Origin: Candidatus Woesearchaeota archaeon
Lineage (GTDB): Archaea > Nanobdellota > Nanobdellia > Pacearchaeales > GW2011-AR1
Direction: 5' to 3'
DNA length: 64,000 bases
Assembly (NCBI GenBank): GCA_964606775.1
Contig: CAZSGW010000002.1
Span: forward strand, 16,129-80,128
The notes beneath the pieces are model-generated. The model was given only the letters and a program-made list of their open reading frames with translations. It did not search any database and was not told where the DNA came from. A program made the position numbers and the translations under genes. Below are positions 6,426 through 64,000 of the stretch, one piece after another (the first letter of the stretch is position 1; each line of letters starts with the position of its first letter).

Positions 6426-6465
6426 AAATTGGTTATAGAAAAATGTTTTATAAACTTATCGTCGA

Positions 6466-9957: not shown

Positions 9958-9958
9958 T

Positions 9959-18150: not shown

Positions 18151-18588
18151 TCACAACTCCCTTATTTCTTTTTTGAAATCTTTTAAATCTTCAAAGTCTC
18201 TGTAAACAGAGGCGAATCGTATATATGCAACCTTATCTAACCCTTTTATTCTTTTAGATACTAAATTGCCTATAATCGAACTCTTTACTTCCTTTTTACC
18301 TTTTTTTCTCAATTGTTCTTCGACTTCTTTTGCAAGTCTCTGAATTTTCTCAACCGAAATCGGACGCTTCTCAAAAGCTCTTTCAATCCCAGCAAGTAAC
18401 TTTTCTGGAATGAATTTTTCTCTTTTATCATCTTTCTTTATCACATACAAATCACCTCTTTCTATTCTCTCGTACGTGGTAAATCTTTTCTCACACTTTA
18501 GACACTCTCTTCTTCTCCGTATACCTGAAGGAGAGTCCCTTTTATCCGTGACACGAGATTTTGTATGTGAACAGTATGGACAATCCAT
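18151..18588 (-). CDS. nrdR: transcriptional repressor NrdR (zinc ribbon + ATP-cone)
   Basis: MDCPYCSHTKSRVTDKR...CLKCEKRFTTYERIE then ATP-cone; directly upstream of nrdJ. Confidence 0.85.
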   Translation of the reverse strand: MDCPYCSHTKSRVTDKRDSPSGIRRRRECLKCEKRFTTYERIERGDLYVIKKDDKREKFIPEKLLAGIERAFEKRPISVEKIQRLAKEVEEQLRKKGKKEVKSSIIGNLVSKRIKGLDKVAYIRFASVYRDFEDLKDFKKEIREL

Positions 18589-28267: not shown

Positions 28268-29104
28268 TTATAAATTATCTAAAGGGCTTCGAGTGTTGAT
28301 TAAATTCGGCGAAGCAATATGAGTATAAATTAAAGTTGTCTCAGGAGATTTGTGCCCGAGCATTGCCTGAACATTCTGAACATCATAACCATTTTCAACT
28401 AAATGAGTAGCAAAACTATGTCTTAATGTATGCGGATGAACGTTCTTTTTTATTCCTGCTTTTTTAGTCGCGTTTAAAACAATTTTCTGCAAACTTCTTA
28501 TATTGTACTTTGTCCCACGATTACTTTGAAACAAATAATCTTTATCTTCCAAATTTTCGATTTCAATCAAATTCTTTATTTTTTCTCTAACAATTTTTGG
28601 TAATGTGATTAACCTATCTTTTCCGCCCTTTCCATTTCGCACATATCCATAATTTTTATCCAGTTCCAAATCTTTGATTTTGACATTAGTTAACTCCGAC
28701 ACTCTTAATCCCGAACCATACAAAAATTCAATCATCAATCTGTGTTTCCAATTTGAAATGGCATTTAATAATTTTCTAACTTCTTCTTTAGACAAAACTT
28801 CAGGTAATTTTTTTGGAGTTTTAGAATATTTTATATCTATCCACATTCTTTTTTCTAAAACATTTTCAAAAAGGAATCTAATTGCCATATGGCAAGTATT
28901 CATTGTACTTCCAGCTAAATTTTTCTCAGACAAATATTCAAGAAACAAACGAACATCCTTTTTCGAAATATATCTTAAATCTTTTTTTGACCAATTCAAA
29001 AACGAATGAATGCAATGCAAATAAGTTTTAGCTGTTTTTGGAGATAATCTTCTCCTTTTACACTCTTTAATTATTTTAGAATCAATGTCTACAAAAGTCT
29101 TCAT
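28268..29104 (-). CDS. tyrosine recombinase/integrase (XerC/D/A-like)
   Basis: catalytic motifs R...HPHTLRHSFATHLVENGYD...LGHKSPETTLIYTH with terminal Tyr. Confidence 0.9.
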   Translation of the reverse strand: MKTFVDIDSKIIKECKRRRLSPKTAKTYLHCIHSFLNWSKKDLRYISKKDVRLFLEYLSEKNLAGSTMNTCHMAIRFLFENVLEKRMWIDIKYSKTPKKLPEVLSKEEVRKLLNAISNWKHRLMIEFLYGSGLRVSELTNVKIKDLELDKNYGYVRNGKGGKDRLITLPKIVREKIKNLIEIENLEDKDYLFQSNRGTKYNIRSLQKIVLNATKKAGIKKNVHPHTLRHSFATHLVENGYDVQNVQAMLGHKSPETTLIYTHIASPNLINTRSPLDNL

Positions 29105-41208: not shown

Positions 41209-42378
41209 CTACTTCCTCTGGAAGATAACATTTTTCTTAGAGATTTTTTCTAAGGTTACAAATTTTTCTTTTCCTGTTTTCATATCTTTAACTTTAACTT
41301 TCTTCTGCTTAACTTCTTGCGCTCCAACAAAAATAACTTGCGCAACGTCATAAGAGTTTGCATAATCTAACGCTTTTGACGGCTTGCCATAAAAAATCAA
41401 AACCCTATTATCTTTATCTCTTAGCTTCTCAGCAATCTTAATAGCTTGCTTATCCTCATTCAAAGAAACCACTAAAATCTTATTTTTTTTATCTACAATT
41501 TTTGCCAAGGAACTCAATCTTTCCAAACCAAAACTAATTCCCGCACACTGAATATTATTAAATTCATAGCTTCCACCACCAACAATCGTCTCTTTCATTT
41601 CGGAAGTTTTAATTTCCCAAACATTTCCATTATAATAACTTAAACCTCTAACTAAAGAAGGTTGAAATTCAAATTTAATTCCATACATTTTACAATATCT
41701 TTCCAATTCTTTAACCTCTGAGAAAGCAGGATATTTTTCAAAATTCTCTTTCTTAAAAACATTCAGAATCTTTTCAGCACCATACCTTTTCAAATTATTT
41801 CTGACCTCCTTCTCGGACAATTTATCTAGTTTATCAATTTCTCTCAAAACTTCCTCCCTGTTTTTTACTCCTTGTTCTCCCAATATTTGATTAACTAATT
41901 TTCTATTTCCAACACAAATTTTAAAATCAATCTTTAAACTCCCTAAAATTTCTTTTACTAGTTTCAAAATCTCTGCCTCATCTTTTATCGAACTTCCAAC
42001 TATGTCTGCATCTGCCTGAAAGAATTGTCTAAATCTGTTTCCTGAAACTGGCTCATCTCTAAAAACAGGCCCAATTTGGTAACGTCTAAATGGAAGCTTC
42101 TTGTTTTGCATTAACCTTTTCAACTGAAATGTAAACTCATATCTCAATGCTAAATTTCTTTTACCTTTATCTTGCAACTTAAAAATATCTGAAATAACCT
42201 CGTCCCTCTTCTGTTCAGGAGAACCTTTCACAAATTCTTCATACTCTACAACAGGAGTCTCAACAGAATTAAAACCATATTTTTCAAAAGTCTCAACTAA
42301 TAATTTCTTAATCTCTGTTCGTTTATCAGCTTCTTCTCCAGCATAATCCTTGAATCCTTTCACCAAATCTGTTTTCAT
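41209..42378 (-). CDS. hisS: histidyl-tRNA synthetase
   Basis: class II aaRS motifs (RYQIGPVFRDE...RFRQFFQADADIVG), C-terminal anticodon-binding domain; adjacent tRNA-His. Confidence 0.8.
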   Translation of the reverse strand: MKTDLVKGFKDYAGEEADKRTEIKKLLVETFEKYGFNSVETPVVEYEEFVKGSPEQKRDEVISDIFKLQDKGKRNLALRYEFTFQLKRLMQNKKLPFRRYQIGPVFRDEPVSGNRFRQFFQADADIVGSSIKDEAEILKLVKEILGSLKIDFKICVGNRKLVNQILGEQGVKNREEVLREIDKLDKLSEKEVRNNLKRYGAEKILNVFKKENFEKYPAFSEVKELERYCKMYGIKFEFQPSLVRGLSYYNGNVWEIKTSEMKETIVGGGSYEFNNIQCAGISFGLERLSSLAKIVDKKNKILVVSLNEDKQAIKIAEKLRDKDNRVLIFYGKPSKALDYANSYDVAQVIFVGAQEVKQKKVKVKDMKTGKEKFVTLEKISKKNVIFQRK

Positions 42379-42438
42379 TTTATACCTCCTTTATTTTGAA
42401 ATTTATTAAAATTTCCGTTTGTAATTCATATTGTAAAG

Positions 42439-42511
42439 GGCGGAAGGAGGGAATTGAACCCTCTTCTCGCGGACCACAACCACACGTCATAACCATTAGA
42501 CCACAACCGCC
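42439..42511 (-). tRNA. tRNA-His (anticodon GTG) with genome-encoded G-1
   Basis: rc G-GCGGTTGTGGTCTAATGGTTATGACGTGTGGTTGTGGTCCGCGAGAAGAGGGTTCAATTCCCTCCTTCCGCC-C; anticodon stem TGTGG/CCGCG, loop TTGTGGT; G-1 pairs discriminator C73; two U-U mismatches in acceptor stem. Confidence 0.7.
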
Positions 42512-42617
42512 ATAATTTAATTCAGAAGCCAAGCTATTAAAACTTTTCCTAATGATGAATACATTGACCAATTTTAATCGCCATAATTTTTTCAAAGGAT
42601 AAGTATTTTTAAATGTT

Positions 42618-43763
42618 TCAATCCAAACTATTAACACTCTTTTTTACTAAATCCATTAAATCTTTTTTCTCATCTTCCAACCTTTTTTTTCTTTTTTCTT
42701 TTGAAACCCTTGTTTTTTCTAAACCTTCAATATCAGCTTCCTCTTTTTCAATTTCTTTGTAATGCATTTCTGTTTTATCTTCTTTGATTTTATTTTTTAA
42801 TTCTTCCAATAATTTCTCTTTTTTCTGAATTTCTTCTAATTTATTTTTAATCTCGGGAGTTTTAAGATTAGCTTCCGTCAACAAATTAATTATTTTATCT
42901 TTATTCTCATTGAAACTATCTAAAAAATTTTCCTTGTATTCCTTGATAATTTTAATTTTTTCAGGAAAAACATGCATAAAATTAGATAATTTCTTAAAAT
43001 CAATTTTTTCTTTTAGATTTTTAATAAGAATCTCCCGTTCCCTTTTTATAGAATAAACTTCCTTCTTTTTTTCCAAATTTTTTAAATAATCTTCAGATTC
43101 TTTAATCTCCTTTATTTTATCTAAGACATCTTGTTTTTTATTCTCTTTTTGCAATAATTTCTCCTGTAATTCTTTTAAATAATCTTCAATTTCTTTAATC
43201 TCTTTCTCAGATTCTTTTATTTTATCTAACTTTGGTTTTACAAAATCTATCTTCTTTGTTTTTTCAGCTAAGCTTCTATTTCCACTAAAAACATTTATAA
43301 TTTCCTTAGAAAATTCTCCCAAACTGTTTTTTATTTCATTCAATTCTTTCCCTATAAAATAATTTGCTTTTTGATAACTTTTATCTGTTTTTTTATAAAA
43401 ATCCGCAAAAAGTTCATTTATCTTACTCACATAATTTTCAAGATTATGCTCTTTTATATTTTTTATATCCGAAATTAATCTTTGTGTTTTTTCGATATAA
43501 TCTATTTTTCCTTGTTTTACAATTGATTTTTCTTTTTCGCCGGATTTGCAAGAATCTACATCAAAGTTACTTAAAACTTCTAATTTCTCTTTTAGATTTT
43601 CAGTAAATTTATTTGTTTTTTCATCAAGATTGCTTAGAATTTCTTTTTCAGGATTATTTTTTAATTCTCCATTAACCCAGTCTTCAATTTCAGAAAAATC
43701 TAGCTTCTTTTTGGTTTCTTCTTTAATTTTTTTCTTCTTTTTAAGAAAGTTAAACAACCCCAT
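42618..43763 (-). CDS. K/E-rich coiled-coil protein, N-terminus MGLFNFLKKKKK
   Basis: 381 aa, low-complexity heptad-like repeats. Confidence 0.45.
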   Translation of the reverse strand: MGLFNFLKKKKKIKEETKKKLDFSEIEDWVNGELKNNPEKEILSNLDEKTNKFTENLKEKLEVLSNFDVDSCKSGEKEKSIVKQGKIDYIEKTQRLISDIKNIKEHNLENYVSKINELFADFYKKTDKSYQKANYFIGKELNEIKNSLGEFSKEIINVFSGNRSLAEKTKKIDFVKPKLDKIKESEKEIKEIEDYLKELQEKLLQKENKKQDVLDKIKEIKESEDYLKNLEKKKEVYSIKREREILIKNLKEKIDFKKLSNFMHVFPEKIKIIKEYKENFLDSFNENKDKIINLLTEANLKTPEIKNKLEEIQKKEKLLEELKNKIKEDKTEMHYKEIEKEEADIEGLEKTRVSKEKRKKRLEDEKKDLMDLVKKSVNSLD

Positions 43764-43834
43764 GGATAATTTAAAAGAAGCAATTATATAAATCTTTTAG
43801 ATAGAATTTTAAATCAAGTTATTTTTTACTTATT

Positions 43835-45010
43835 ATGGAAAAACGAGAATTACTATCTCCCGCAGGAAATTTTGCAACATTGCAAACAGCAATAAACGCT
43901 GGAGCGGACGCAATTTATTTCGGATTAAAAGAATTCTCTCTAAGAGCTGGAGCAAAGAATTTTGAATTAAAAGATTTAGACAAGATAAATTCAATTTGTA
44001 AAGAATCAAAAATAAAAAAATATCTTACTTTAAATTCAGTGATTTACAATGAAGAACTAAAAAAATTAGAAAAAATATTTAAAAAAATAAAAGGAAAAAT
44101 CGACGCCGTGATTTGTTGGGATTTAGCAGTTATTCAATTATGTAAAAAACATAAAATTCCATTTCATATTTCGACTCAGGCTTCTGTTTCAAATTTAGAG
44201 TCCGCAAAATTTTATAAAAAACTCGGAGCGGAAAGAATAGTCTTAGCAAGAGAATTAACCCTAAAACAAATCAAAGAAATATCAAAAATAATTGATGTAG
44301 AATGTTTTGTCCACGGAGCAATGTGCATTGCAGTTTCAGGAAGATGTCTAACCTCCCAATTTCTTTTTAATAAATCGGCGAATAGGGGACAATGTATTCA
44401 CCCTTGTAGAAGAAGTTACATAGTAAAAGATAAACAAGAAGGTTATGAATTAGAAGTTCAAAATGACAAAATTTTATCTGCAAAAGATTTGTGCACTCTG
44501 CCTTTTATCGAGAAATTAAAAAAGGCGGGAATAGTCTCTTTCAAAATTGAAGGAAGAAATCGTGACCCTCGTTATATAGATACTATCACTCGAATTTACA
44601 AAAAAGCGCTAACTAAAAAATTAACAAAACAAGAGATAGAATCTTCTTTAGGAGAACTAAAAAAGGTTTACAATAAAGGATTTTCTTCAGGATTTTACCT
44701 TGGTTTACCTACCTCTGATGATTTATCAAAAGCAGAACACTCTCAAGCTATCGAAAAGAAACATTTTGTTGGAAAAGTAACACACTATTATCCAAAAATA
44801 AAAGTTGCAACAATTAAGTTAGTATCAGAACTAAAAACCGGAGATAAAATCATTGTAATTGGAAAAACAACTGGATTAAAGAAATCTAAAATTGAAAAGC
44901 TGGAAATAAAAAATAAGTCTGTTAAAAAAGCAATTAAGGGACAAGAAGTCGGAATAAAACTTCCAAACGTTAAGAAAAATGACGAGATTTATTTAATAAA
45001 GAAAAATTAA
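43835..45010 (+). CDS. peptidase U32 family protein
   Basis: N-terminal ELLSPAGNFATLQTAINAGADAIYFG... signature. Confidence 0.8.
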   Translation: MEKRELLSPAGNFATLQTAINAGADAIYFGLKEFSLRAGAKNFELKDLDKINSICKESKIKKYLTLNSVIYNEELKKLEKIFKKIKGKIDAVICWDLAVIQLCKKHKIPFHISTQASVSNLESAKFYKKLGAERIVLARELTLKQIKEISKIIDVECFVHGAMCIAVSGRCLTSQFLFNKSANRGQCIHPCRRSYIVKDKQEGYELEVQNDKILSAKDLCTLPFIEKLKKAGIVSFKIEGRNRDPRYIDTITRIYKKALTKKLTKQEIESSLGELKKVYNKGFSSGFYLGLPTSDDLSKAEHSQAIEKKHFVGKVTHYYPKIKVATIKLVSELKTGDKIIVIGKTTGLKKSKIEKLEIKNKSVKKAIKGQEVGIKLPNVKKNDEIYLIKKN

Positions 45011-52858: not shown

Positions 52859-52898
52859 TTTTATAAACTAAAATATATATTATAATATATAAAAGAGT

Positions 52899-54077
52899 GT
52901 GATGATGGCAAAGAAAAAATCTTCCAAAAGAAAATCTAGTAAAAAGACCCCCCATAAAAAAAGTTCAAGTAATTCTAAGTCAGTTAACAAAGCAGACTTT
53001 GAAACATTTAAATTTGGAGTTGAGCGATTAAAGGAATTAAAAAAGGAACTAAATTCTTTAGATACAAAAGGATTCTCTTTGGAAGAGGAGTCAATAAAAT
53101 CGAAATTAAAAGATGTAACTCAAATACCTACGATTGAGAAAGAATTAAAACTACTTAAACAAAAAATAAAAAACAAACCAAAAAAATCTTCCAAAAAAAA
53201 GTCTAGCAAAAAATCTTCACATAAGAAAACTTCTAAAAAATTCACGTCTCACAAAAAATCAAAAAAGATTACAAAAGCGGACAAAGAAAAAGCACCAACT
53301 CTAAAATTAAAAACTGATGAAGATATAGCAAGAGATTTTGCAGTTAAGATTTCTCAGAAATTCAATAAAATCGTTAAATCAATAGTATTATTTGGTTCAA
53401 CAATTAAAAAAGACAAGGTTTCAGGTTCAGATATTGATGTAATGATATTGATTGATGATGCTTCAATAAAATGGGACCAAGAGTTAATTGCATGGTATAG
53501 AGAAGAACTTGAAAAAATACTAAGAGCAAACCCTTACAATAAGGAACTTCACGTTAACACCGTTAAACTAAGTACTTGGTGGGAAGATTTAATGAGGGGA
53601 GACCCTGTTGTAATCAACGTTTTAAGATATGGGGAAGCAATGGTTGATTTAGCAGGTTTCTTTAATCCATTAAAACATTTATTAATACAAGGAAAAATAA
53701 AAGCAACCCCCGAAGCAATTCATAGTTGTTTGCAAAGAGCTCCATTACATTTAACCAGAAGTAAAGCGGCGGAACTTGGAGCCGTAGAAGGTTTATACTG
53801 GTCAATGGTAGATTCAGCTCATGCAGCACTTATAGCAGCAAACGTGCTACCTCCTTCTCCAGAGCATATTTCTGAAGAATTAAAGAAAACTTTTGTTAGC
53901 AGAGGAAAACTCAATTCAAAATATCCAAAATGGTTTGGAGAATTGTTAGAGCTTCATAAAAAAATAGAACACAGGGAAATTTCTGACCTCAAAGGAGTTG
54001 AGATAGATGATTGGCAGAAAAAAACTGAAGACTTCATGATGGTCATGACAAAACTAGTAGATGAAATGGTTAGTTAA
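52899..54077 (+). CDS. Pol-beta superfamily nucleotidyltransferase with K/S-rich N-terminal region and helical C-terminal domain
   Basis: LFGSTIKKDKVSGSDIDVMILIDD NTase motif; paralogous to 56192-57973 product. Confidence 0.6.
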   Translation: MMMAKKKSSKRKSSKKTPHKKSSSNSKSVNKADFETFKFGVERLKELKKELNSLDTKGFSLEEESIKSKLKDVTQIPTIEKELKLLKQKIKNKPKKSSKKKSSKKSSHKKTSKKFTSHKKSKKITKADKEKAPTLKLKTDEDIARDFAVKISQKFNKIVKSIVLFGSTIKKDKVSGSDIDVMILIDDASIKWDQELIAWYREELEKILRANPYNKELHVNTVKLSTWWEDLMRGDPVVINVLRYGEAMVDLAGFFNPLKHLLIQGKIKATPEAIHSCLQRAPLHLTRSKAAELGAVEGLYWSMVDSAHAALIAANVLPPSPEHISEELKKTFVSRGKLNSKYPKWFGELLELHKKIEHREISDLKGVEIDDWQKKTEDFMMVMTKLVDEMVS

Positions 54078-54331
54078 TTGGTCATTCCTAGTACTTTGTC
54101 GTCTAAATTTCGCAAATGTTTCGGAAATTTTGAAGTATTAACTCCAAGTTCTTTCGCTTTCATTCTTGCGAATTCGTACCTTTTTTCACAAATTTCTTTC
54201 AAATTTTCATTTCCCTTTTCAATAGATTCAGCGTGCTTTTTCTGATAGAAATCAATAGCTATCTCTGCAGTTTCAGGTATGCTATAATTCAAACAATCTG
54301 TTCCTTTGTAATTTACAACTTTGTTCTTCAT
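54074..54331 (-). CDS. hypothetical protein
   Basis: 85-aa ORF. Confidence 0.35.
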   Translation of the reverse strand: MKNKVVNYKGTDCLNYSIPETAEIAIDFYQKKHAESIEKGNENLKEICEKRYEFARMKAKELGVNTSKFPKHLRNLDDKVLGMTN

Positions 54332-54939
54332 TTTTTCTTATCCTCTCCATTCGGATTATATTTTTTTCCTAAATCCTGAGCCATAGCGTTAACATCTGCA
54401 TAAGCTTGTTTATTCACCGAATTAAGAGTTACAGCTTTCCAAAATGTTTCATTAAGCAAACCATAATATTGAGCAACTCCTTTTTCAAAATTATTTAGGT
54501 CTTTCTCAGATTTTCCAGCAATAGAATATATTCCATGATCCTTCATAGCATCCGGAACTTCCACTTTTACGCCCGAAACATCCTTCACAATTTTTTCTAA
54601 ATCATTTAGAGTTAATATCTGCATATTTGAGCCAATTGATCTTGCAATTCTCAAAGAATAATCATTTAAATCTTCCCTACGCGCTTCACCGGGTAAACCA
54701 TATCTTTCAATATCTTCCTTCTCTTGATTATATCTCCCTTCTATATCTTTTTGAATTTCTTCATTTCCATTTAGAGATTCATACTGATAATCTGCAACTC
54801 CAGGATTAACTAATTGCGAAAATTTCTCAGAAGATTGTTTAACCCTCGCATTACCTAATACTTCATGATAAAGTTTGTGGCTAAGTGTCTTCTTTGCATT
54901 TTCTCTTTGTTCTTTTGATATTTGATTTTCGTCACCCAT
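54328..54939 (-). CDS. hypothetical protein
   Basis: 203-aa ORF. Confidence 0.4.
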   Translation of the reverse strand: MGDENQISKEQRENAKKTLSHKLYHEVLGNARVKQSSEKFSQLVNPGVADYQYESLNGNEEIQKDIEGRYNQEKEDIERYGLPGEARREDLNDYSLRIARSIGSNMQILTLNDLEKIVKDVSGVKVEVPDAMKDHGIYSIAGKSEKDLNNFEKGVAQYYGLLNETFWKAVTLNSVNKQAYADVNAMAQDLGKKYNPNGEDKKK

Positions 54940-54944
54940 TTATC

Positions 54945-55163
54945 TTATTCCTCAAATTTATTCGCTAAATTTTTTTTAGATTGTTCTTGTGCAACTGGAT
55001 CTTCCGAGTATACATACCCTTCTTTCAATCCATTCCAACTTTTATTTAAACCATTCCAAGTTTCATAATTAACTTTTCTTGGAGTGATTTGATTTGTTTG
55101 ATATTTTATTTTCATAGAAATTCTAAAAATCCAATGTTTATAAATCTTTCTATTTGTTACCAT
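54945..55163 (-). CDS. hypothetical protein
   Basis: 72-aa ORF. Confidence 0.3.
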   Translation of the reverse strand: MVTNRKIYKHWIFRISMKIKYQTNQITPRKVNYETWNGLNKSWNGLKEGYVYSEDPVAQEQSKKNLANKFEE

Positions 55164-55178
55164 TTTAAAAAAGTAACA

Positions 55179-55715
55179 TTATTTCTTTTCATAAAGAATT
55201 TTCGTTTTGCAAGGAAGCTTTGGCTTTATTTGCTTTAACGTATTTCTCACAAATGCCACAGACTTTTCATCCGCAACAGCTACGTGAAAAATAGTATCGC
55301 CTTCTTTCAATATAGCGGCTTTTCCAGAAGATTTACCGAAAGATAACTGCATACCAGTCTGCATTCTATCTGCACCTGCACCAGTAAGCATTTTGTTTTC
55401 TCTTTGAATATGGTGTGGAAATGGAACTACATTTAAAACAAAAATTCCGTTTAGTTCTTTAGCAATTTTTTTATTAACAAACTGACGACAAGCTTCCATT
55501 GCATTATGTCTTATCTGACATTTCTCCGAAGTAATAAGCCTCAATTCATGAGTAAGTTTGCCTGCATTATACATTGCTGGTTTGCCCATCGTAAATTTTA
55601 CAATTTTTTGTGGAGGAACCGTTTTAATAAACGACTTACTCCTTTTTTTAGAAACACGAGTAAACGGAACTACTTTCTTTTTTGAATAAGCTCGAGCTTT
55701 TCTTAACGCGGCCAT
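55179..55715 (-). CDS. rpl10e: 50S ribosomal protein L10e (uL16)
   Basis: MAALRKARAYSKKK...GAGADRM... family signature. Confidence 0.9.
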   Translation of the reverse strand: MAALRKARAYSKKKVVPFTRVSKKRSKSFIKTVPPQKIVKFTMGKPAMYNAGKLTHELRLITSEKCQIRHNAMEACRQFVNKKIAKELNGIFVLNVVPFPHHIQRENKMLTGAGADRMQTGMQLSFGKSSGKAAILKEGDTIFHVAVADEKSVAFVRNTLKQIKPKLPCKTKILYEKK

Positions 55716-55716
55716 T

Positions 55717-55893
55717 TTATCCCAAGTAATAATCAGAAAGTCTTGCTTCCTTTTCTAATTTATTTGTTGATTTTTCGTCCTTCACGTTTTCCTTCTTTTC
55801 TTCAATACAAGAAGAACAACTAACGTTATAATATATACAATCCATAGGACGTTCTTTCGAACTTACAAATTTTTGATAATCTTTACAACTCAT
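55717..55893 (-). CDS. candidate 58-aa Cys-containing small protein
   Basis: ATG overlaps L35Ae stop as ATGA; MSCKDYQKFVSSKERPMDCIYYNVSCSSCIEEKK...; below ORF-track length cutoff. Confidence 0.3.
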   Translation of the reverse strand: MSCKDYQKFVSSKERPMDCIYYNVSCSSCIEEKKENVKDEKSTNKLEKEARLSDYYLG

Positions 55894-56168
55894 TTTATTT
55901 CTACCTCTGTTGTAACCGCCTGCCCAGGAAGACCTTTTTCAAAAATAGCTCTAACAACTCCATTATTTCCATGAGCTCCAGAGACTTTTCCTTTAATTTG
56001 CTTCTTCTCCTTTCCTGGAGAAGTCCAAATAACCTCCTTCCCAACAAATTTTTCAGCAGCTCCTTTATCCGAAACTCCATCTATCTCAATTAACATATGT
56101 CTTTCTGTTATAGTATGTCTCCCACGTCTAAATTGTACAACTTTTCCTTTAACCATATAGAATATCAA
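55890..56168 (-). CDS. rpl35ae: 50S ribosomal protein L35Ae
   Basis: 92-aa family signature. Confidence 0.85.
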   Translation of the reverse strand: MIFYMVKGKVVQFRRGRHTITERHMLIEIDGVSDKGAAEKFVGKEVIWTSPGKEKKQIKGKVSGAHGNNGVVRAIFEKGLPGQAVTTEVEIK

Positions 56169-56191
56169 TAAAATTAGTTTAAAAAACTTTC

Positions 56192-57973
56192 TTAGATGAA
56201 AACTTCGTAATTCCCAAGTTCTTTTTTCAACAATTCGAACAATTTAGGGCTAATCACAACATCTTTATTCTTCTTTGAATCTTCAATTGCCTTAGAAAAC
56301 TCGTCCATATTACTCTCTTCAATATTATTTGTTAATTTGAAAATCTTTTTATCCTTAAATAAAAAAGCAACATCCTTAAAATTAACCAACTCGGCTTCCT
56401 TCGTATTTCCACCTTCTTTATATTTCAATCTCATTTTTCCTTTCTCAACCAGAGCTAAATCACATCTCTGATTATATTCAACTAAATCATTTATCAGGAT
56501 TCCGGCATTCTTACGTGCTTCATCAACTTTATGCGCGTTTAATTTTCCTTTCTTAAAATCTCCTCTCGCTGAAACAATATTTTTCAAAATCCTCAAATCT
56601 TGCGGAGAAAATTTATTTGAATTAATAAAATCTTTCTCAAAAGATTCAATAATGGCAACCTGCGACTTCTTTCCTGTTAAATCCTTCAATAAATTAAACA
56701 CATCTTTGTAAATCTCTTCAATAGTCTTTTCCTGAACCTTCTTCTCAATTTGTTCTCTCAATTCTTTCATCCTCTTTAAATAATCCTCCATATTGCTCAA
56801 CATCTTATCTATCTCCTTACCTGAAATCTCTTTTATTTTTCCATGCTCGTAATCTCTCCATGTACTAATAACATTTTCGATAAAATCAACATACTTCTTT
56901 TCGACCATTTTCGTGTTATAAAATTCTTTCTTAAAATGGTGAAGTAATTCTTTCTTCGCATTTGGGGGAGGCAAACCATAAAGCATCAGCAAAGCCTGTG
57001 CAGGCGTTGTAACGCCCCAAAATATGTTAGTAAAAACCTCAGATAATAACATTCTCTTACTTCGAGGAATAACTTCATCTCCCATAGACATAAACATATC
57101 AATCGCCTCTGGAGAAGGTTTCAATTTACCCATCTTTAAAAGAGATTTCCATGGCATGAAAGTTCCCCTATCGTAAATAGGAACACCATCACGAATAAAA
57201 GTAAACATTACAGGATGAGCATCTTTAACGGCATCCCAAAAATCGGTCAACAAATAAATCTGAGGCTCCAGTTTGTTTTTAACACCTGCTAATTCAGAAG
57301 CTTGAACAACATACTGGTAAATAATTCCTCTTAACCTCTCTTTTAATTCTAAACGAGGCATTCTTTTAACATCTGTATCATTAATAATCACAAAAACATC
57401 AACATCTGAAGTCTTAGTCGCATCTCCTCTAACCAAACTTCCCCCCATAACATAAGAAACAACATATTTCTCAAATTTTTGTAAAACTAAAGACTTATGG
57501 ATTTCCGCAACTCTCAAAGCCCCTAAAAATCCTTTATCATAAAGCGGATAAGACATAGCAATAGCAGAAGATAACTCAAACTTTTGGTCCAAACAAATTT
57601 CCCAAATTTCCGCAGGCGTTCTAATATGAAGCCAAACATTCTGTTTTGTTTTTTCAATTTCCGAAATTAATTCTTTCTTTATCTTAGGAATCTCTTTATC
57701 TTTATTATTCGGAACAATGACATTTAAATGTAGGGCCTTCTCCGATTCTTTTGGAACTTCCTCTTCTTCAATAAAAAACTTCAAAGACTGAGGAGGTAAA
57801 ACACCGATTGCCTGAACATATTTATATTTTTTAAGGATAAACTCCTTTAATTTCTCAACCTCTTTTTTAGTCTTCTCCATCTCTTTTTGAGCATCTTCAG
57901 GATTAGGGCTTTCTTGAGAAGATTTTTTGTAACTATCATTCAAATCCATACCAGGAATATTTTGCCCAACCAT
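56192..57973 (-). CDS. Pol-beta superfamily nucleotidyltransferase paralog (593 aa; CCA-adding enzyme candidate)
   Basis: YVMGGSLVRGDATKTSDVDVFVIIND NTase motif followed by helical region alignable with the 52899-54077 product. Confidence 0.55.
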   Translation of the reverse strand: MVGQNIPGMDLNDSYKKSSQESPNPEDAQKEMEKTKKEVEKLKEFILKKYKYVQAIGVLPPQSLKFFIEEEEVPKESEKALHLNVIVPNNKDKEIPKIKKELISEIEKTKQNVWLHIRTPAEIWEICLDQKFELSSAIAMSYPLYDKGFLGALRVAEIHKSLVLQKFEKYVVSYVMGGSLVRGDATKTSDVDVFVIINDTDVKRMPRLELKERLRGIIYQYVVQASELAGVKNKLEPQIYLLTDFWDAVKDAHPVMFTFIRDGVPIYDRGTFMPWKSLLKMGKLKPSPEAIDMFMSMGDEVIPRSKRMLLSEVFTNIFWGVTTPAQALLMLYGLPPPNAKKELLHHFKKEFYNTKMVEKKYVDFIENVISTWRDYEHGKIKEISGKEIDKMLSNMEDYLKRMKELREQIEKKVQEKTIEEIYKDVFNLLKDLTGKKSQVAIIESFEKDFINSNKFSPQDLRILKNIVSARGDFKKGKLNAHKVDEARKNAGILINDLVEYNQRCDLALVEKGKMRLKYKEGGNTKEAELVNFKDVAFLFKDKKIFKLTNNIEESNMDEFSKAIEDSKKNKDVVISPKLFELLKKELGNYEVFI

Positions 57974-57991
57974 AACTTAAAAATGATTCAT

Positions 57992-58576
57992 TCACTTATA
58001 AAAGTTTCTCATTTCCTTTAAAATTTTTTGTTTACTTCTCCACAAAATTTGTTTAACATTATCTTCCGAGATGTTAAGTTTCTCTCCAATTTCTTTGTAT
58101 TTCAATCCCTTCCAATGTCTTAATGAAAAAACTTCTAAACTTCTATTACTAAGTTTCTTAACTATGTTCTCTAATATCTCCTTTTTTTCTTTTTTGATTA
58201 ACAATTTTTCTGGGTTTTCATGATTTTTCAAATAGTTACTCTCAAAAGCCTCTTGTATAGAGGATTTAATTCCCCATCTCTTCAATTTTAATTTTTCCCT
58301 TCTCTTTTTATCAATAAGATGGTTTTTTGCAATGCCATATATCCAAGATTTTGCACAGGGATAAAAAGAATCATAATTTGAAATATTCTTAATTACTTTT
58401 ATGAAGGTGTCATGAATTATGTCCTCCCTTTCTTTTTCACAAGAAGTATATTTTTTCAAAAACCCTGAAAGACCTAAAAAATATTTTAAGTATAACCTTT
58501 CAGTTGCATTTTTTAGATTATTATTTTTCTGGGCATCAAAAATTATTTCTCGGTCTGTCAATCTAGATAAACCCAT
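57992..58576 (-). CDS. ECF-type sigma-70 family protein
   Basis: region 2 (DIIHDTFIKVIKNI...SWIYGIAKNHLIDKKRR) and region 4 HTH (LSNRSLEVFSLRHWKGLKYKEIGEKLNISEDNVKQILWRSKQKI). Confidence 0.7.
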   Translation of the reverse strand: MGLSRLTDREIIFDAQKNNNLKNATERLYLKYFLGLSGFLKKYTSCEKEREDIIHDTFIKVIKNISNYDSFYPCAKSWIYGIAKNHLIDKKRREKLKLKRWGIKSSIQEAFESNYLKNHENPEKLLIKKEKKEILENIVKKLSNRSLEVFSLRHWKGLKYKEIGEKLNISEDNVKQILWRSKQKILKEMRNFYK

Positions 58577-58626
58577 TAAATTTATTGTATGGCCTATTTT
58601 TTAAGTATTGTTATACTCCTTAAAAT

Positions 58627-59262
58627 TCACTTCCTCGAAATTTTATTTCTTAAACTATTTTCAAGTCTTTTTTTTCTAGATTTTAAAGTATTCTCATTTA
58701 TGTCTAATTTTTCCTGAACTTCCTTGTACTTCAATTCTTCTTTAATCACTAAATTATAAATCTCTCGGTACTTTTGTGGAAGTTTTTTTACCGCACTATC
58801 TAACGCATCAATTTTTTGTTTATGGATAAGAATTTCCTCTGGATTTTTAAAACCTCCATAGTCAATATGAGTTACTTCAATAGATTCATCAAATTTTATC
58901 TCTCTAATACTTTTTTCCAATTTCCTACTTTTAGAATTATCTCTTCTAAATTTATCTACTCCCCTATTATACGCCATTTTAAAAAACCAAGTACTTGGTT
59001 TAGAAAATTCCTTTTTATATTTTCCAATTTTTTCAGTAAAATTAATGAGAGTCTCCTGAACTATATCTTCTCTATCTTCTTTACTATAATTAAAAGATTT
59101 TATTAAAAACCCATTCAAATTTCTCTTATGTCTTTCATAAAATATTTGTATTGCTTTGTCCCGGAAATTCTTGTCCTTTGCTTTCTCAACTAAATCATAA
59201 TCATCTAATTCTTTCAAACCTTTATATCTCATATTTTCCATTTTAATTTTCGAAAAACCCAT
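58627..59262 (-). CDS. ECF-type sigma-70 family protein (paralog)
   Basis: DIVQETLINFTEKIGKYKKEFSKPSTWFFKMAYNRGVDKFRR (region 2) and LPQKYREIYNLVIKEELKYKEVQEKLDINENTLKSRKKRL (region 4). Confidence 0.75.
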   Translation of the reverse strand: MGFSKIKMENMRYKGLKELDDYDLVEKAKDKNFRDKAIQIFYERHKRNLNGFLIKSFNYSKEDREDIVQETLINFTEKIGKYKKEFSKPSTWFFKMAYNRGVDKFRRDNSKSRKLEKSIREIKFDESIEVTHIDYGGFKNPEEILIHKQKIDALDSAVKKLPQKYREIYNLVIKEELKYKEVQEKLDINENTLKSRKKRLENSLRNKISRK

Positions 59263-59320
59263 TATTTAAATTTTCCTAATTAATAACATTTAAAAATTAA
59301 AAAATATAACAATTATAATC

Positions 59321-59392
59321 GGTCCCATAGTCCAGTGGTTAAGACGATTCGTTTACACCGAATAAACCCAAGTTCGATTCTTGGTGGGACCA
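59321..59392 (+). tRNA. tRNA-Val (anticodon TAC), CCA not encoded
   Basis: GGTCCCATAGTCCAGTGGTTAAGACGATTCGTTTACACCGAAT...CCAAGTTCGATTCTTGGTGGGACCA; anticodon loop TTTACAC. Confidence 0.85.
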
Positions 59393-59394
59393 TT

Positions 59395-60132
59395 ATGACT
59401 TTTATTGACATTCATTCTCATTTAGATTTAATGAAAGACTTAGATTCAGTAATTGAAAATGCTTCTGTAAAAAATGTGCGAATTGTGACTGCCTCGACAA
59501 CTAAAAAATCAATTGGAAAAACGCTTGAAATTTCTAAAAAATATGAAAATGTGTTTTGCACGCTCGGATTATATCCGATAGATGCCCTTAAATTGTCAGA
59601 TTCAGAAGTAGATCAAGCGATAGAATTAATCAGGGAAAAAAAGAACTCAATAGCTGGAATCGGGGAAGTCGGTCTTGATTTAAAACACTCCTATGAACTG
59701 GAAAAACAAAAAACCAATCTAAAAAAATTTATAGAACTAGCTAAAGAACTAAATAAACCTTTAATTGTACACTCAAGAAGGGCAGAAAAAGAGGCAATAG
59801 AATATTTAGAATCATTCAATTATAATAAGATAATAATGCACTGTTTTTCGGGAAATTTCAAACTAGTGAATAGGATAATTGAGAATGGATGGTTTTTTTC
59901 AATTCCAACAAGCGTGAAAAGTTCGGAACATTTTCAGAAAGTGATAGAAATAACTCCTCTCGAACAATTATTTTGTGAAACAGATTCCCCCTACTTACAT
60001 CCAGATAGAAAATTTCCAAATGAACCCTCAAATGTTTTGGAGTCTTATAAAAAAATCGCAGAAATAAAAAATATCTCCTTAGAAAAAGTCGAGAAAAGAA
60101 TTGAAGAAAACTATAAAAATCTCTTTGAATAA
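59395..60132 (+). CDS. tatD: TatD-family metal-dependent hydrolase/DNase
   Basis: MTFIDIHSHLD N-terminus; start moved from 59335 because that ORF-track start lies inside tRNA-Val. Confidence 0.8.
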   Translation: MTFIDIHSHLDLMKDLDSVIENASVKNVRIVTASTTKKSIGKTLEISKKYENVFCTLGLYPIDALKLSDSEVDQAIELIREKKNSIAGIGEVGLDLKHSYELEKQKTNLKKFIELAKELNKPLIVHSRRAEKEAIEYLESFNYNKIIMHCFSGNFKLVNRIIENGWFFSIPTSVKSSEHFQKVIEITPLEQLFCETDSPYLHPDRKFPNEPSNVLESYKKIAEIKNISLEKVEKRIEENYKNLFE

Positions 60133-60142
60133 TGAAGAACAA

Positions 60143-60214
60143 GCGTGAGTAGTTCAGCGGTTAGAATACGTCGTTGCCAACGATGTGACCCGGGTTCGAT
60201 TCCCGGCTCGCGCA
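60143..60214 (+). tRNA. tRNA-Gly (anticodon GCC), CCA not encoded
   Basis: GCGTGAGTAGTTCAGCGGTTAGAATACGTCGTTGCCAACGATG...CCGGGTTCGATTCCCGGCTCGCGCA. Confidence 0.85.
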
Positions 60215-60373
60215 TAATAAGGGATGAAAACCCAGTAGTTAAACATTAAGAATTTCCGTCGGAAAACATGAAACATCAAAAGATAACTCCCCGATAATTA
60301 CATCAAATGTGTTTAACTCTGGAATAACAACAAAATAGAAAGATTTATAAACCCCTTTTTTCTACATCTAATC

Positions 60374-61909
60374 ATGAAACAAAACTCAAAAAACTTAATT
60401 CAAAAATTAGGAGACAGTAAGTTCGGAAGTGCTATGAAAAAAGCTGCACTATACACTGCAATTCCTTTCGCACTTGCAACAGGTTATTCACAAAAAGCTG
60501 ATGCTCAAGATATTGATTTTACAACATCTGGAAAGAAAGGAGGAATCAGTACATTGCCAGCAATCGTTGAACATGGAACTCCATATCTTTATCAGAATGT
60601 TAATACTTCAAATGATAACCCTCTTGGAATTGAAAAATACCCAGTAGACAAATTGAAAGGGAAAAGTCCAAGCGTTATTTATGAACCTTACGAAATGGAA
60701 GGAAATAAACTTATTTTTACAAATAATGGTGTTTTAGGGAATAAACCTGAAGACGATGAACCTTCATATAACATAAAAGATGCGGAAGATGTTATGGGAG
60801 GACAAATTGATGTTAAAGTAAAAGATTTCTCAAACTTATTCAAAACTCTTGTAATAAAAGGAAACGATGGATATAACGATACAATATATTACCCTCACTA
60901 CCCTCAAGGAACAGGAGAAAAACAAAATAGTGTTTGGTTCTACAAAGATGATATGTTAGAATTCGGAGTAACAGATGATGGAAATAACTACTATGTATTA
61001 TTGGATAAAAAAGGAGATTTCTATGGTTGGCAAATTGATAAAGATAGATCAACTGGTAGCGGAGATGGAATAGTAAATCCAAATTATCCTAAAGGCTATA
61101 AAGACCAATTAAAAGATAAAATAAATACTGGAGAAGTTGAAAAAATAATCACATCAGAGGAAGAAAAAGAACCCTCTTACGCAGTTCTTAGAGATACAAG
61201 AGTTTCTCCTTCAAGAAGAAGAGGAAACGGTCCAAACGTAAGATTGGAATTAGCTCTTGCTGGAAATATTCACGACTTTGAAAACTTAGAAAAAAATTCA
61301 GCAGACGCTATTGCATACTTAGGAATTGGAGACAACAAAGGAAATTTCCACGTAGGTCCAATGGCTTGGTACAACTTTACAAATTCTGGAATCAAAGATG
61401 TAGAAAGAACAAACGATTATTCTCTTGAAGAAATTTCAAATAGCACTACAGATTTAGGATACGGCGTTACAAGAACTAAACAAGGATTGGTTGAAGTTGA
61501 AAAAGACAAAGTAATTGAAACTATAAACAACTACTTGTGGGGTGCAGGACTTCAATTCGACTTTAAACTTGCAAAGGGTTTAGAACTAAAACTTGCAGGT
61601 GGACTTGCTGAAAAGAAATTCCAACAAGAAACGACTGAAAACAAAACAGAAACAGGTTATGATGTTGTAACTGTTCAAAGAGATGGAAATGTTTTGTTCA
61701 ATGATACTCTTACAAACACTTCTCACCACACTAATACAGATATAGAAAAATACGTTGTTGATTTTAAATCTGGAAAACTATTCTTCGGAGATATAAGTCT
61801 TGATTTTTACCCAACAAAAGAACTTGCAATCTCTTTAGGTGGAAGATTAATTGACAATAAATTTTACCCTAATCTTAAGTTCGGGGTTTCAATAAATAAC
61901 AAGGAATAA
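60374..61909 (+). CDS. secreted protein (N-terminal signal peptide), unknown function
   Basis: 511 aa; hydrophobic signal ...AALYTAIPFALATGYSQKADA. Confidence 0.5.
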   Translation: MKQNSKNLIQKLGDSKFGSAMKKAALYTAIPFALATGYSQKADAQDIDFTTSGKKGGISTLPAIVEHGTPYLYQNVNTSNDNPLGIEKYPVDKLKGKSPSVIYEPYEMEGNKLIFTNNGVLGNKPEDDEPSYNIKDAEDVMGGQIDVKVKDFSNLFKTLVIKGNDGYNDTIYYPHYPQGTGEKQNSVWFYKDDMLEFGVTDDGNNYYVLLDKKGDFYGWQIDKDRSTGSGDGIVNPNYPKGYKDQLKDKINTGEVEKIITSEEEKEPSYAVLRDTRVSPSRRRGNGPNVRLELALAGNIHDFENLEKNSADAIAYLGIGDNKGNFHVGPMAWYNFTNSGIKDVERTNDYSLEEISNSTTDLGYGVTRTKQGLVEVEKDKVIETINNYLWGAGLQFDFKLAKGLELKLAGGLAEKKFQQETTENKTETGYDVVTVQRDGNVLFNDTLTNTSHHTNTDIEKYVVDFKSGKLFFGDISLDFYPTKELAISLGGRLIDNKFYPNLKFGVSINNKE

Positions 61910-61911
61910 AG

Positions 61912-63345
61912 ATGAAAACTCAAAAACTAATCTTAACTTTTGCACTACTTTTCTTAGTTCTTGCCCCATTTGTTGCAGCAGACAATTCAGTTGCAGGTTT
62001 ATTAGTTTACGAAGATACAGATGATACTACTATAACAGTTGAAACAGGAGATTCAACAGGTTTTTTAGTATGGGGTTATGGATTTTTAGAAGATTATATT
62101 TTAGTAAGCGTTGATTTACTTGATGATTCAGGAAATCAAATAACAAATATTCATTCTGGAAAATACAACAGACAATCAGAAAACTATGATGTTGAATTTT
62201 CAGATACTTTATCTCTTTCAGCCGGAACTGCTGGAACATACACTCTTGAATTAACTGTAATTGGGGAGAGTGGAGCAAAAACAACTCACGATTTAACATT
62301 AATTGTTGAAAGCACTACAACTACAACAGGTTCAGCACCTACAATTGCAATAAGTAGCCCACAAAATGGAAATACTTACGACTCTCTTTCAACTCTTTTC
62401 TACTCTGCAAACGATGTAGATGGAGATTTAGACACTTGTTGGTATTCTGATGGAAGTACAACTTCAGACCCAGTATCATGTTCAGAAGGTTCAAACGCCT
62501 TTACAATAAATCCTTCAGAAGGTTCAAATACTTACACTGTTTACGCTCAAGATTTTGAAGGAAACACAGCTCAAGATGAAGTAACATTCACAATTGACTC
62601 AACAATGCCGGACACAACAGCGCCAGCAGTTTCAATTTCAAATCCACTAGAAGGAAATGTATACACATCAGAAATAACAAACTTATACTACTCAGCAACT
62701 GATGAAAATTTAGATACTTGTTGGTATTCAACAGATGAAGGAGAAACAAATTCAACACCAGTATCTTGTTCAAGTTCTTTCGCAGTAACTTCAGATGAAG
62801 GAATAAATATCTGGACTGTTTATGCTCAAGACACAGCTGGAAACGTTGGAAGTGACAGCGTTACTTTTGTGGTAAATACATTAGGAGATACAACAGCCCC
62901 AACAATCTCAATTGCTTCGCCATCTGACGAAGAAGAACTAGATTTCACGGAAGTAGATTTTAGAGTATATGTAAATGAAGATGTTTCAAGTGTTGTTTAT
63001 AGCATTAACGACGGAGAAAATAAATCAATGACTGAAACTTCAGCATGGACATACGAAGCTACTGAAGAATTAGAAGACGAATCAGATTACACTTTAACTG
63101 TTTATGCTACTGATATGTACGGAAACACGGCAAGCAAGACAATCACATTCACAATTGATGAAGTAGCTGATTCAGACGACGAAAGTAGAGCTTCAGTTAC
63201 GGTTGACGATAAAAAATGGAAAGAACAATTTGACCATAAAAAACCAAAAATAACACTAGAAGAAGACGATGAAAAGGAACTTAACTGGTGGCAAAAATTC
63301 ATCAACTGGTTATGTAGAGTTTTCGGATTAACAGAAATCTACTAA
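61912..63345 (+). CDS. secreted protein with tandem Ig-like repeats and C-terminal WQKFINWLCRVFG motif
   Basis: signal peptide; three or more ~95-aa repeats with (D/E)xxLDTCWYS...TVYAQD...GN...VTF. Confidence 0.6.
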   Translation: MKTQKLILTFALLFLVLAPFVAADNSVAGLLVYEDTDDTTITVETGDSTGFLVWGYGFLEDYILVSVDLLDDSGNQITNIHSGKYNRQSENYDVEFSDTLSLSAGTAGTYTLELTVIGESGAKTTHDLTLIVESTTTTTGSAPTIAISSPQNGNTYDSLSTLFYSANDVDGDLDTCWYSDGSTTSDPVSCSEGSNAFTINPSEGSNTYTVYAQDFEGNTAQDEVTFTIDSTMPDTTAPAVSISNPLEGNVYTSEITNLYYSATDENLDTCWYSTDEGETNSTPVSCSSSFAVTSDEGINIWTVYAQDTAGNVGSDSVTFVVNTLGDTTAPTISIASPSDEEELDFTEVDFRVYVNEDVSSVVYSINDGENKSMTETSAWTYEATEELEDESDYTLTVYATDMYGNTASKTITFTIDEVADSDDESRASVTVDDKKWKEQFDHKKPKITLEEDDEKELNWWQKFINWLCRVFGLTEIY

Positions 63346-63363
63346 AATTTCTTCTTTATTAAA

Positions 63364-63666
63364 ATGAAAAGTAACCAAGAACACTTGAACGCAGTAAAGG
63401 CATACGGAGAAATGATTAAGTTATACTACGAAAATCTGGAATCATTAGAAACTGCTCAAAAAAAATCTTTTTTTGAAAACTTAAAATCAAAAGTTGATAA
63501 TCATAAGAAAGTAATCCCTTCTTATCTTTTAGAGGACAAAGATATAAATTTTACTGTAAAACAACTTGATTCAAAGTTAGAACACGCACTAAAAAATCTT
63601 TCAATACCCGACGATAAATATCATTTATTAAAAGGGTATAATTCAAGAAACAAAACTAGGGAATAA
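63364..63666 (+). CDS. hypothetical protein
   Basis: 100-aa ORF. Confidence 0.35.
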   Translation: MKSNQEHLNAVKAYGEMIKLYYENLESLETAQKKSFFENLKSKVDNHKKVIPSYLLEDKDINFTVKQLDSKLEHALKNLSIPDDKYHLLKGYNSRNKTRE

Positions 63667-64000
63667 TTTCAGGACCAAAATATTTCTCATAACAAAAATC
63701 ATTTAAATCTACAATGTTACCTTTAATATATTCTTTTATTTCATTCATGCGTTCTTTTATTGAATCGATAAGATAAATAATAGTTTCACAAATTAATTTT
63801 TGCCCCTCTTCAGGCCAAAGTTTTGCATAATTCGAATACAAACATCTTCCGCCGCAAATATCTAAATGCTCACAAGAACTACAAGGCTCAATAACATCAA
63901 TTTCTTTAAGCTCATTGGAATTCAAATGCCCACACTGAAAATTCTTAATATTATTCATAATCGGACAAGCAACAATTTTTCCATTTGTAGTAATAGTATA
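63656..64000 (-). CDS. C-terminal part of a probable radical SAM/SPASM-domain protein (N-terminus beyond window end)
   Basis: Cys cluster CSSCEHLDICGGRC; reading frame open to window edge. Confidence 0.4.
   Translation of the reverse strand, partial: YTITTNGKIVACPIMNNIKNFQCGHLNSNELKEIDVIEPCSSCEHLDICGGRCLYSNYAKLWPEEGQKLICETIIYLIDSIKERMNEIKEYIKGNIVDLNDFCYEKYFGPEIIP

Follow-up and report, generated by a model that had tools for sequence, protein, structure and literature searches.

Why does an archaeon carry two bacterial-type sigma factors side by side, and with which transcription machinery could they act? The question is raised by a 64,000-nucleotide stretch of a Candidatus Woesearchaeota archaeon genome (GenBank assembly GCA_964606775.1, contig CAZSGW010000002.1, positions 16,129 to 80,128 of the forward strand), in the following called the window, in which two tandem genes, here named sigA and sigB, code for sigma-70 family proteins of the extracytoplasmic function (ECF) type. 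The hallmark initiation factors of bacterial transcription are sigma factors; archaea use TBP, TFB, and TFE. Both genes are long-term chromosomal residents of a DPANN archaeon of the Pacearchaeota/Woesearchaeota type, and with a probability of roughly 55%, we read them as an old bacterial acquisition that was domesticated into promoter-specific regulators acting with the archaeal machinery. A preliminary description of the sequence had already offered bacterial origin followed by repurposing, and this is still the best reading.

The sighting itself is not new, and the surprise voiced in the preliminary description was overstated. In a review, the first description of archaeal sigma factors is attributed to Rinke et al. 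2013 (PMC6126073), and Castelle et al. 2021 reported sigma-70 genes in DPANN archaea as "particularly prevalent in Woesearchaeota" (PMC8204110). Their sigma family, fam00359, is mostly found in Woesearchaeota; mis-binning was ruled out, no anti-sigma factor was found, and the mechanism was called unclear (PMC8204110). Experimental work on an archaeal sigma factor was not found in our literature search. What is added here is a conserved genomic slot, which in one relative directly adjoins the RNA polymerase operon, an archaeal promoter context, the retention of hallmark residues in both domains, and a set of natural intact, decayed, and absent variants that makes the question experimentally tractable.

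Identity of the two proteins

Pfam, NCBIfam, PDB matches, and the predicted fold support the initial assignment of two archaeal genes to the ECF-type sigma-70 family, and both products are intact, full-length ECF (group 4) proteins. In the profile searches proposed in the preliminary description, Sigma70_r2 (PF04542; cut-off 24) reached 42.6 bits in sigB and 37.3 bits in sigA, and Sigma70_r4_2 (PF08281; cut-off 25.7) reached 41.4 and 37.2 bits, respectively. Two further Pfam models, Sigma70_r4 (PF04545; 37.2 bits) and Sigma70_ECF (31.6 bits against 21.1), were above cut-off for sigB. The presence of region 2 and of a region 4 helix-turn-helix (HTH) in both products was hence recognised correctly, and the motifs quoted for it belong to the 211-aa protein. 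The NCBIfam model TIGR02937 (sigma70-ECF) scored 93.6 bits for sigB and 83.3 bits for sigA, approximately twice its curated cut-off of 42.9. In sigA, region 2 covers approximately residues 41-109 and region 4 approximately residues 152-199, with a disordered linker at 114-139. Region 1.1 was not found in either protein with Pfam, and Sigma70_r3 for region 3 gave no match in sigA and only 13.3 bits in sigB, below the cut-off of 25.3. With 211 and 194 aa, both proteins are within the ECF size range of about 170-220 aa.

Both sequences matched the solved ECF sigma factors AlgU, sigmaE, and SigW in the PDB over their full length; sigA matched SigW and sigmaE, and the best match of sigB was AlgU/sigmaE, with the best E value of 1.5e-12. 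AlphaFold2 models built on 120-sequence alignments reached a pLDDT of 80.4 for sigA and 82.8 for sigB and consist of two predicted helical domains with a disordered linker between them. When both models were compared with the PDB by Foldseek, ECF sigma factors ranked on top, followed by other sigma-70-family factors, and the modelled region 2 superimposed on region 2 of E. coli sigmaE at 1.9-2.8 A (root-mean-square deviation of 1.9 A for the sigma2 domain of sigA).

By domain, size, TIGR02937, and hallmark criteria, sigA and sigB fit the ECF group, and they fall in no described subgroup among the NCBIfam models. All subfamily and equivalog models of NCBIfam stayed far under their cut-offs for both proteins, for example the SigM family with 80.9 against 147.95 and RpoE with 63.5 against 236. 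Between sigA and sigB, the identity amounts to 32% overall and 52% in the HTH. A recent tandem duplication was considered for the pair and is not supported, as their mutual identity is no higher than that to unrelated ECF sigma factors.

Hallmark residues

For the hallmark columns, the threshold was conservation in 55% or more of 247 other ECF sigma factors. Eight of the nine archaeal sigma proteins encoded in the genomic slot described below, with locus L112 as the exception, keep most of these residues, namely the DxxQ[ED] helix and W-x3-I-A-x-N-x3-D-x2-R in regions 2.3-2.4, L-P in region 4.1, and the Y-x-E-I...T-V-K HTH of region 4.2. In sigma structures, the beta' clamp helices lie opposite the DxxQ helix, while interaction with the -10 element falls to the W/N/D/R cluster. 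All hallmarks are present in sigA (D66, Q69, W92, N99, D103, R106, L161, E181, and K194). In sigB, all sigA-type hallmarks besides the Gln of the DxxQ helix are present.

Archaeal host and integrity of the locus

The window carries an archaeal RNA polymerase operon (Table 1), and the Pfam matches bear out the RpoH and the unsplit RpoB that had been reported for this contig. It also codes for archaeal NusA, S12, S7, aEF-2, L10e, and L35Ae. No bacterial RNA polymerase genes were found within the 64-kb window, and the archaeal polymerase is the only one in view. In a comparison with one genome per GTDB species, the nearest relatives of L10e, at 75% identity or less, were metagenome-assembled genomes (MAGs) of Pacearchaeota/Woesearchaeota ("Nanoarchaeota"), and the host, whose own genome is not among the species representatives, can therefore be assigned to this group of DPANN archaea.

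In an independent Logan assembly (run SRR15425353), one contig of 11,107 bp agrees at every base with window positions 52862-63968 (100% identity) and spans both junctions of the sigma segment. The tetranucleotide composition of the segment, which had been suggested as a check for foreign DNA, deviates from the window mean by a z of at most 1.4, which is typical of the window and comparable to the rpoB region. The codon usage of the sigma genes is also typical (z of -0.65 and +1.03), and compositional amelioration to the host is complete. Together with the sigma genes in the same slot of relatives, these results rule out the chimeric binning or misassembly that the preliminary description had put forward as an option.

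The tRNA genes beside the sigma genes, pointed out in that description as common integration hot spots and here identified as tRNA-Val and tRNA-Gly, gave no sign of a mobile insertion. A search for att-like repeats originating from these tRNAs came up empty, no integrase lies within 28 kb of the sigma genes, no viral contig carries a close sigma relative, and no viral genes surround the locus, while the same tRNA neighbours recur in relatives. The similarity to phage sigma factors is generic, with a weak match to PHROG 1740 and 28-32% identity to sigma factors of crAss-like phages. The nearest recombinase of the window is an Xer-like tyrosine recombinase of the phage-integrase family, approximately 29 kb from the sigma genes (28268-29104, minus strand).

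Two observations concern the polymerase and the relatives used for comparison. RpoA is encoded by a single ORF of 1163 aa with Rpb1 domains 1-5, so that A' and A'' are unsplit, and RpoA of the related locus L014 (2538-6026) is likewise one unsplit ORF of 1162 aa; archaea are usually described with A' and A'' split. Moreover, three bins among the GTDB species representatives that are labelled 'bacterium', 'Bacillota bacterium', and 'Fusobacteriaceae bacterium' (L027, L077, and L084) carry the archaeal L35Ae-L10e block, and L027 and L077 also hold the nucleotidyltransferase genes, while L084 comprises only 1156 bp. As these archaeal blocks are 67-71% identical to the window, the bins are contaminated or mislabelled.

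A conserved slot upstream of NT593

Loci of relatives were found by anchoring on two neighbours of the sigma genes, L10e and NT593, the latter a nucleotidyltransferase-domain protein of 593 aa whose gene starts 18 nt downstream of sigB in the same orientation. No PDB relative of NT593 was found. The block NT593-L35Ae-L10e...NT392(-)-p625(-) is conserved in approximately 77 of the 80 related genomes, and the L35Ae-L10e synteny is kept in 78-80 of them. With 52-75% identity across these approximately 77 relatives, NT593 belongs to the core genes of the lineage and serves as the anchor of the sigma slot.

A sigma-like ORF stands directly upstream of NT593, co-oriented and with a gap below approximately 60 nt, in the GTDB MAG loci L014 and L029, and the same arrangement was found in the metagenome contigs L086, L089, and L090. 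In L112, the slot holds a degenerate sigma copy that has lost the W/N/D hallmarks, and in L061 an 83-aa remnant with region 4 only (5386-5637). The corresponding place in L013 (6647-6922) is taken by an unrelated DUF134-like HTH gene, whose HTH resembles sigma region 4, and in the relatives without a sigma gene, many unrelated genes fill the position upstream of NT593. In L014, the gene order is rpoB-rpoA-nusA-sigma-NT593-L35Ae-L10e; the RNA polymerase operon, with an RpoB 76% identical to that of the window, thus directly abuts the sigma gene.

The tRNA side of the slot is shared as well. As in the window, tRNA-Gly(GCC) adjoins the sigma gene in L089 and L112, and tRNA-Val(TAC) stands directly upstream of the sigma-like gene in L112. 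These shared tRNA neighbours point to an old, inherited synteny, and the slot tRNA-Gly/tRNA-Val - sigma - NT593 - L35Ae - L10e holds a sigma gene in several related archaea.

No anti-sigma candidate was found next to sigA and sigB, whose neighbours are tRNA-Val, TatD, and NT593, and the related loci revealed no conserved slot partner other than NT593. NT593 itself was considered as an anti-sigma factor or dedicated partner and was rejected, as it is a core gene in nearly all relatives without a sigma gene; its co-transcription with the sigma genes is possible. In the Pacearchaeota/Woesearchaeota relatives, NT593 always heads the L35Ae-L10e block.

On the far side of the tRNA genes, the window codes for a 477-aa secreted Ig-like repeat protein (60374-63345, plus strand). 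Homologues with 28-35% identity lie upstream of the NT593 block in L076, L101, L106, L114, and L115, and in the latter four they stand beyond TatD. As none of these five loci has a sigma gene, the proximity of the Ig-like protein to sigA and sigB reflects inherited synteny and is no evidence for a sigma regulon.

Divergence and ancestry

When 1.84 billion representatives were searched exhaustively with HMMER and a profile of sigA and sigB, 53,087 relatives were found at E<=1e-3, and besides the two proteins themselves, no match was better than 3e-25. The BLAST identity of sigA and sigB to any other sequence is about 30-35%, and word-indexed homologue searches returned only self-matches and three matches at approximately 30% identity. 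One of the very best sequence matches, P0018, is encoded by L086, so that the best matches are at least partly archaeal positional counterparts. The close matches P0163, P0166, and P0161 on long contigs have bacterial surroundings (MutS; PolA/GidB/L34; HtrA/RpoH) and are uninformative on the archaeal clade.

The sigma proteins of L014 and L029 are mutual best matches with 36% identity and share 23-29% identity with sigA and sigB. Unlike the sigma proteins, the flanking NT593, L10e, and RpoB are 59-76% identical between the same genomes. This pattern may have arisen in two ways, by inheritance of one gene that diverged very fast or by repeated gene replacement at a hot spot.

Promoter context

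A position weight matrix (PWM) was obtained from a motif search in the 80 nt upstream of 33 other genes of the window. In approximately 20 of the 33 genes, the promoter box of the genome, RAWARNTTTWWAAA, starts at -35/-36 from the ATG, a placement expected of archaeal promoters with TFB recognition element (BRE) and TATA box, which implies mostly leaderless mRNAs. Upstream of sigB, the box AACAATACTTAAAA lies at this canonical distance and scores 4.9 bits, for which the probability by chance is approximately 0.02 in a 6-position window. The 58-nt spacer between sigA and tRNA-Val contains TATATTTTTTAATT at -46 (5.7 bits) and TTTAATTTTTAAAT at -39 (3.0 bits), with no clear canonical box. For NT593, a 5.5-bit match was found at -35, within the 3' end of sigB. 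The sigma genes of relatives have CTTTAAAAA/TTTTTAAAA boxes near -35 that are clearer than those of the window.

A scan for the bacterial sigma-70 consensus remained at chance level (14 sites versus 12.1 +/- 3.8 in shuffles). By eye, the 58-nt and 50-nt upstream spacers, for which no dedicated ECF -35/-10 scan was made, contain no apparent bipartite ECF-like motif. Judging from the sequence, the TATA-type upstream boxes suggest that the sigma genes are wired into the archaeal transcription system.

Proposed domestication as regulators and alternative readings

In the favoured scenario, an old transfer from a bacterium to an archaeon would have been followed by fast divergence, with the genes lost at times and retained by a minority of lineages. 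The retained sigma proteins would serve as promoter-specific transcription regulators of a small regulon, in which regions 4 and 2 together may read a bipartite DNA site and the protein would act on the archaeal pre-initiation complex, as the archaeal enzyme is the only RNA polymerase in view. The clamp coiled-coil of RNA polymerase is structurally conserved and is bound by sigma region 2 in bacteria and by TFE and Spt5 in archaea. The likeliest contact would be that of region 2 with the RpoA clamp coiled-coil, a docking step that we put forward as a hypothesis; candidate roles of region 2 are this docking, the binding of single-stranded DNA, or both. A role that uses region 2 is favoured because this region and its hallmarks persist through very deep divergence. 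Such retention would be unexpected in a mere HTH regulator, since the region-4-only proteins found here do without region 2.

Several results weigh against this reading. In sigB, His takes the place of the DxxQ-helix Gln, which hardly varies across 120 aligned sequences. The upstream boxes of sigB and sigA, with 4.9 and 5.7 bits, score low compared with the median of 10.3 bits for other genes. Furthermore, a hidden Markov model (HMM) of five positional counterparts ranks sigA only 189th and sigB 167th of 256 ECF sequences, so that synteny alone carries the case for common descent; a monophyletic, sequence-defined clade of archaeal sigma factors is not claimed, given the low HMM ranks and the BLAST ranks that agree with them. 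Finally, a sigma-like ORF occupies the slot in only 6 of the 79 loci with enough upstream sequence, with L029 as the seventh of 80. From this patchy presence in approximately 8% of the relatives, the degenerate copy in L112, and the fragment in L061, it can be concluded that the sigma gene is dispensable and sometimes decays.

The main rival holds that sigA and sigB are ordinary DNA-binding transcription factors that use their HTH surfaces only and repress or activate near TATA boxes, with no sigma-like contact to the polymerase. Region-4-like HTH proteins that lack region 2 are common in archaea, as exemplified by the DUF134-like gene in the slot of L013, the product of 1824-2609 in the window, and LuxR/region-4 proteins (PMC5413776), and the missing Gln in the core-binding helix of sigB would fit such a role. 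However, region 2 and its hallmarks are kept in eight of the nine archaeal copies despite identities of only about 24-36%, and we regard this explanation as possible but on the unlikely side.

Somewhat less probable still is the bolder idea that both proteins are true specificity or melting factors for the archaeal RNA polymerase, in which region 2 would sit on the RpoA clamp coiled-coil, alongside TFE or in its place, and a bipartite promoter would be recognised by regions 2 and 4. The persistence of both domains with their hallmarks and the position of the L014 gene directly after rpoB-rpoA-nusA are compatible with it. If true, some DPANN archaea would possess a hybrid bacterial-archaeal initiation pathway.

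It is improbable that the genes are functionless relics of horizontal transfer that drift towards loss. The patchy distribution, the degenerate L112 copy and the region-4-only remnant of L061, the very fast divergence of the sigma proteins relative to neighbouring genes, and the weak promoter matches would all be expected of relics. In contrast, both ORFs of the window are intact and of full length, with 83-94 bits on the ECF superfamily model, confident predicted folds, and preserved hallmark residues, and six or more lineages still have intact copies although the identity of their flanking proteins has dropped to 59-76%.

We consider it very improbable that the two proteins work with a bacterial RNA polymerase, encoded either elsewhere in the genome or in a bacterial host or partner that receives the protein. 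The retained determinants of sigma-like function would suit this idea, but the 64-kb window contains an archaeal polymerase only, and neither protein has a signal peptide or an adjoining secretion-related gene. The known hosts of DPANN archaea are themselves archaea, which also counts against it. The symbiotic lifestyle assumed for DPANN archaea would suit the idea (PMC8204110), but for these genomes the literature reports the archaeal factors to be expected and mentions no bacterial polymerase (PMC8204110).

The least credible explanation, a misassembled or mis-binned bacterial fragment or a recent mobile element or provirus at the tRNA genes, could draw on the adjoining tRNA genes, the bacterial nature of the family, and the weak phage matches, but the artefact is rejected by the identical independent assembly across both junctions and the host-like composition and codon usage, and neither att repeats, a nearby integrase, nor viral relatives were found, while MAGs and metagenome contigs of related archaea have this slot occupied as well.

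The wider point is that an archaeal lineage has kept complete sigma factors over long evolution, which raises a concrete mechanistic question: either a sigma factor can communicate with an archaeal-type polymerase, or it can be converted into a free-standing regulator. With two divergent paralogues, a defined slot, natural controls, and RNA polymerase genes on the same contig, the locus is a clean test case.

Comparison with known systems

Bacterial ECF sigma factors such as E. coli sigmaE/RpoE, P. aeruginosa AlgU, and B. subtilis SigW share with sigA and sigB the sigma2-linker-sigma4 layout in about 190-210 aa, the motifs DxxQE and W..IA.N...D..RR, the region 4.2 HTH, and a matching predicted fold. 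Unlike these, sigA and sigB reside in an archaeon with only an archaeal polymerase visible in the window. They also differ from typical bacterial ECF sigma factors in that an adjacent anti-sigma gene is missing and TATA-type boxes as in archaea lie upstream; an ECF-type autoregulatory promoter was not seen by eye near the two genes, again short of a dedicated scan. TFB and TFE are functional analogues, which provide promoter recognition and DNA melting for the archaeal polymerase, but no search made here showed a sequence or fold relationship to sigA and sigB, for which all fold matches are sigma factors.

The published DPANN sigma factors are similar in that they belong to the sigma-70 family, lie on contigs with archaeal markers, have no anti-sigma factor, and come from the same Pacearchaeota/Woesearchaeota group (PMC8204110); compared with these, the locus of the window is a tandem pair with a defined slot upstream of a core nucleotidyltransferase. 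Archaeal DUF134 and LuxR/Tfx-type regulators and the product of 1824-2609 likewise combine a region-4-type HTH with an archaeal host, but they lack region 2, whereas in sigA and sigB this region is complete and keeps conserved hallmarks. ECF-like sigma factors of phages (PHROG 1740; crAss-like) are also small sigma2-sigma4 proteins outside a bacterial chromosome; however, their identity is only 28-32%, and the locus in the window is free of surrounding viral genes.

Further features of the window

The features discussed here are summarized in Table 1. The ECF profiles detected no further sigma-like ORF in the window. A further sigma-derived protein is nevertheless encoded at 1824-2609, the last gene after rpoH-rpoB-rpoA-nusA-S12-S7-aEF2. 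Its product does end in a Sigma70_r4 domain (cut-off 24.1), consistent with the region-4-like motif noted in the preliminary description, and its NCBIfam matches (RpoS/RpoD/RpoH models) are confined to approximately residues 178-250. The ECF profile gave no match to it at E<=1. As region 2 is missing, the protein is sigma-derived but not a sigma factor.

Table 1. Features of the window with coordinates (window positions), strand, and supporting evidence or remarks.
Feature	Position	Strand	Evidence or remark
Xre-type HTH + RpoS/RpoD-type sigma region 4 protein, 261 aa	1824-2609	-	PF01381 38.7 bits, PF04545 31.4 bits
rpoH-rpoB-rpoA-nusA operon	6012-13410	-	Pfam Rpb5_C, Rpb2, Rpb1 domains; TIGR01952 nusA_arch
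RpoA	6466-9957	-	Pfam
RpoB, unsplit	9959-13207		Pfam
RpoH	13204-13410		PF01191
L35Ae and L10e genes, 58-aa ORF between	55179-56168	-	PF01247, PF00252; downstream of NT593
NT593, 593-aa nucleotidyltransferase-domain protein	56192-57973	-	PF01909 34.4 bits
sigB	57992-58576	-	ECF-type sigma-70 family protein of 194 aa
Weak archaeal BRE/TATA-like box AACAATACTTAAAA	58599-58612	-	Starts exactly 36 nt upstream of sigB ATG
sigA	58627-59262	-	211-aa ECF-type sigma-70 family protein
sigA/tRNA-Val spacer, 58 nt	59263-59320	-	AT-rich, TATA-like boxes
tRNA-Val(TAC)	59321-59392	+	ARAGORN; divergent from sigA
tRNA-Gly(GCC)	60143-60214	+	ARAGORN

Two regions of the window stand out in tetranucleotide composition. 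Positions 42001-45000 (z 3.0-3.7) include a 381-aa ORF that has no annotation and a peptidase U32 gene at 27% GC, and positions 61001-63000 (z 2.5) correspond to the Thr/Ser-rich secreted Ig-like repeat protein. Another bacterial-style regulator of this archaeon is a bacterial-type NrdR repressor with Zn ribbon and ATP cone (18151-18588, minus strand), which is encoded directly upstream of the large subunit of ribonucleotide reductase (15609-18149, minus strand).

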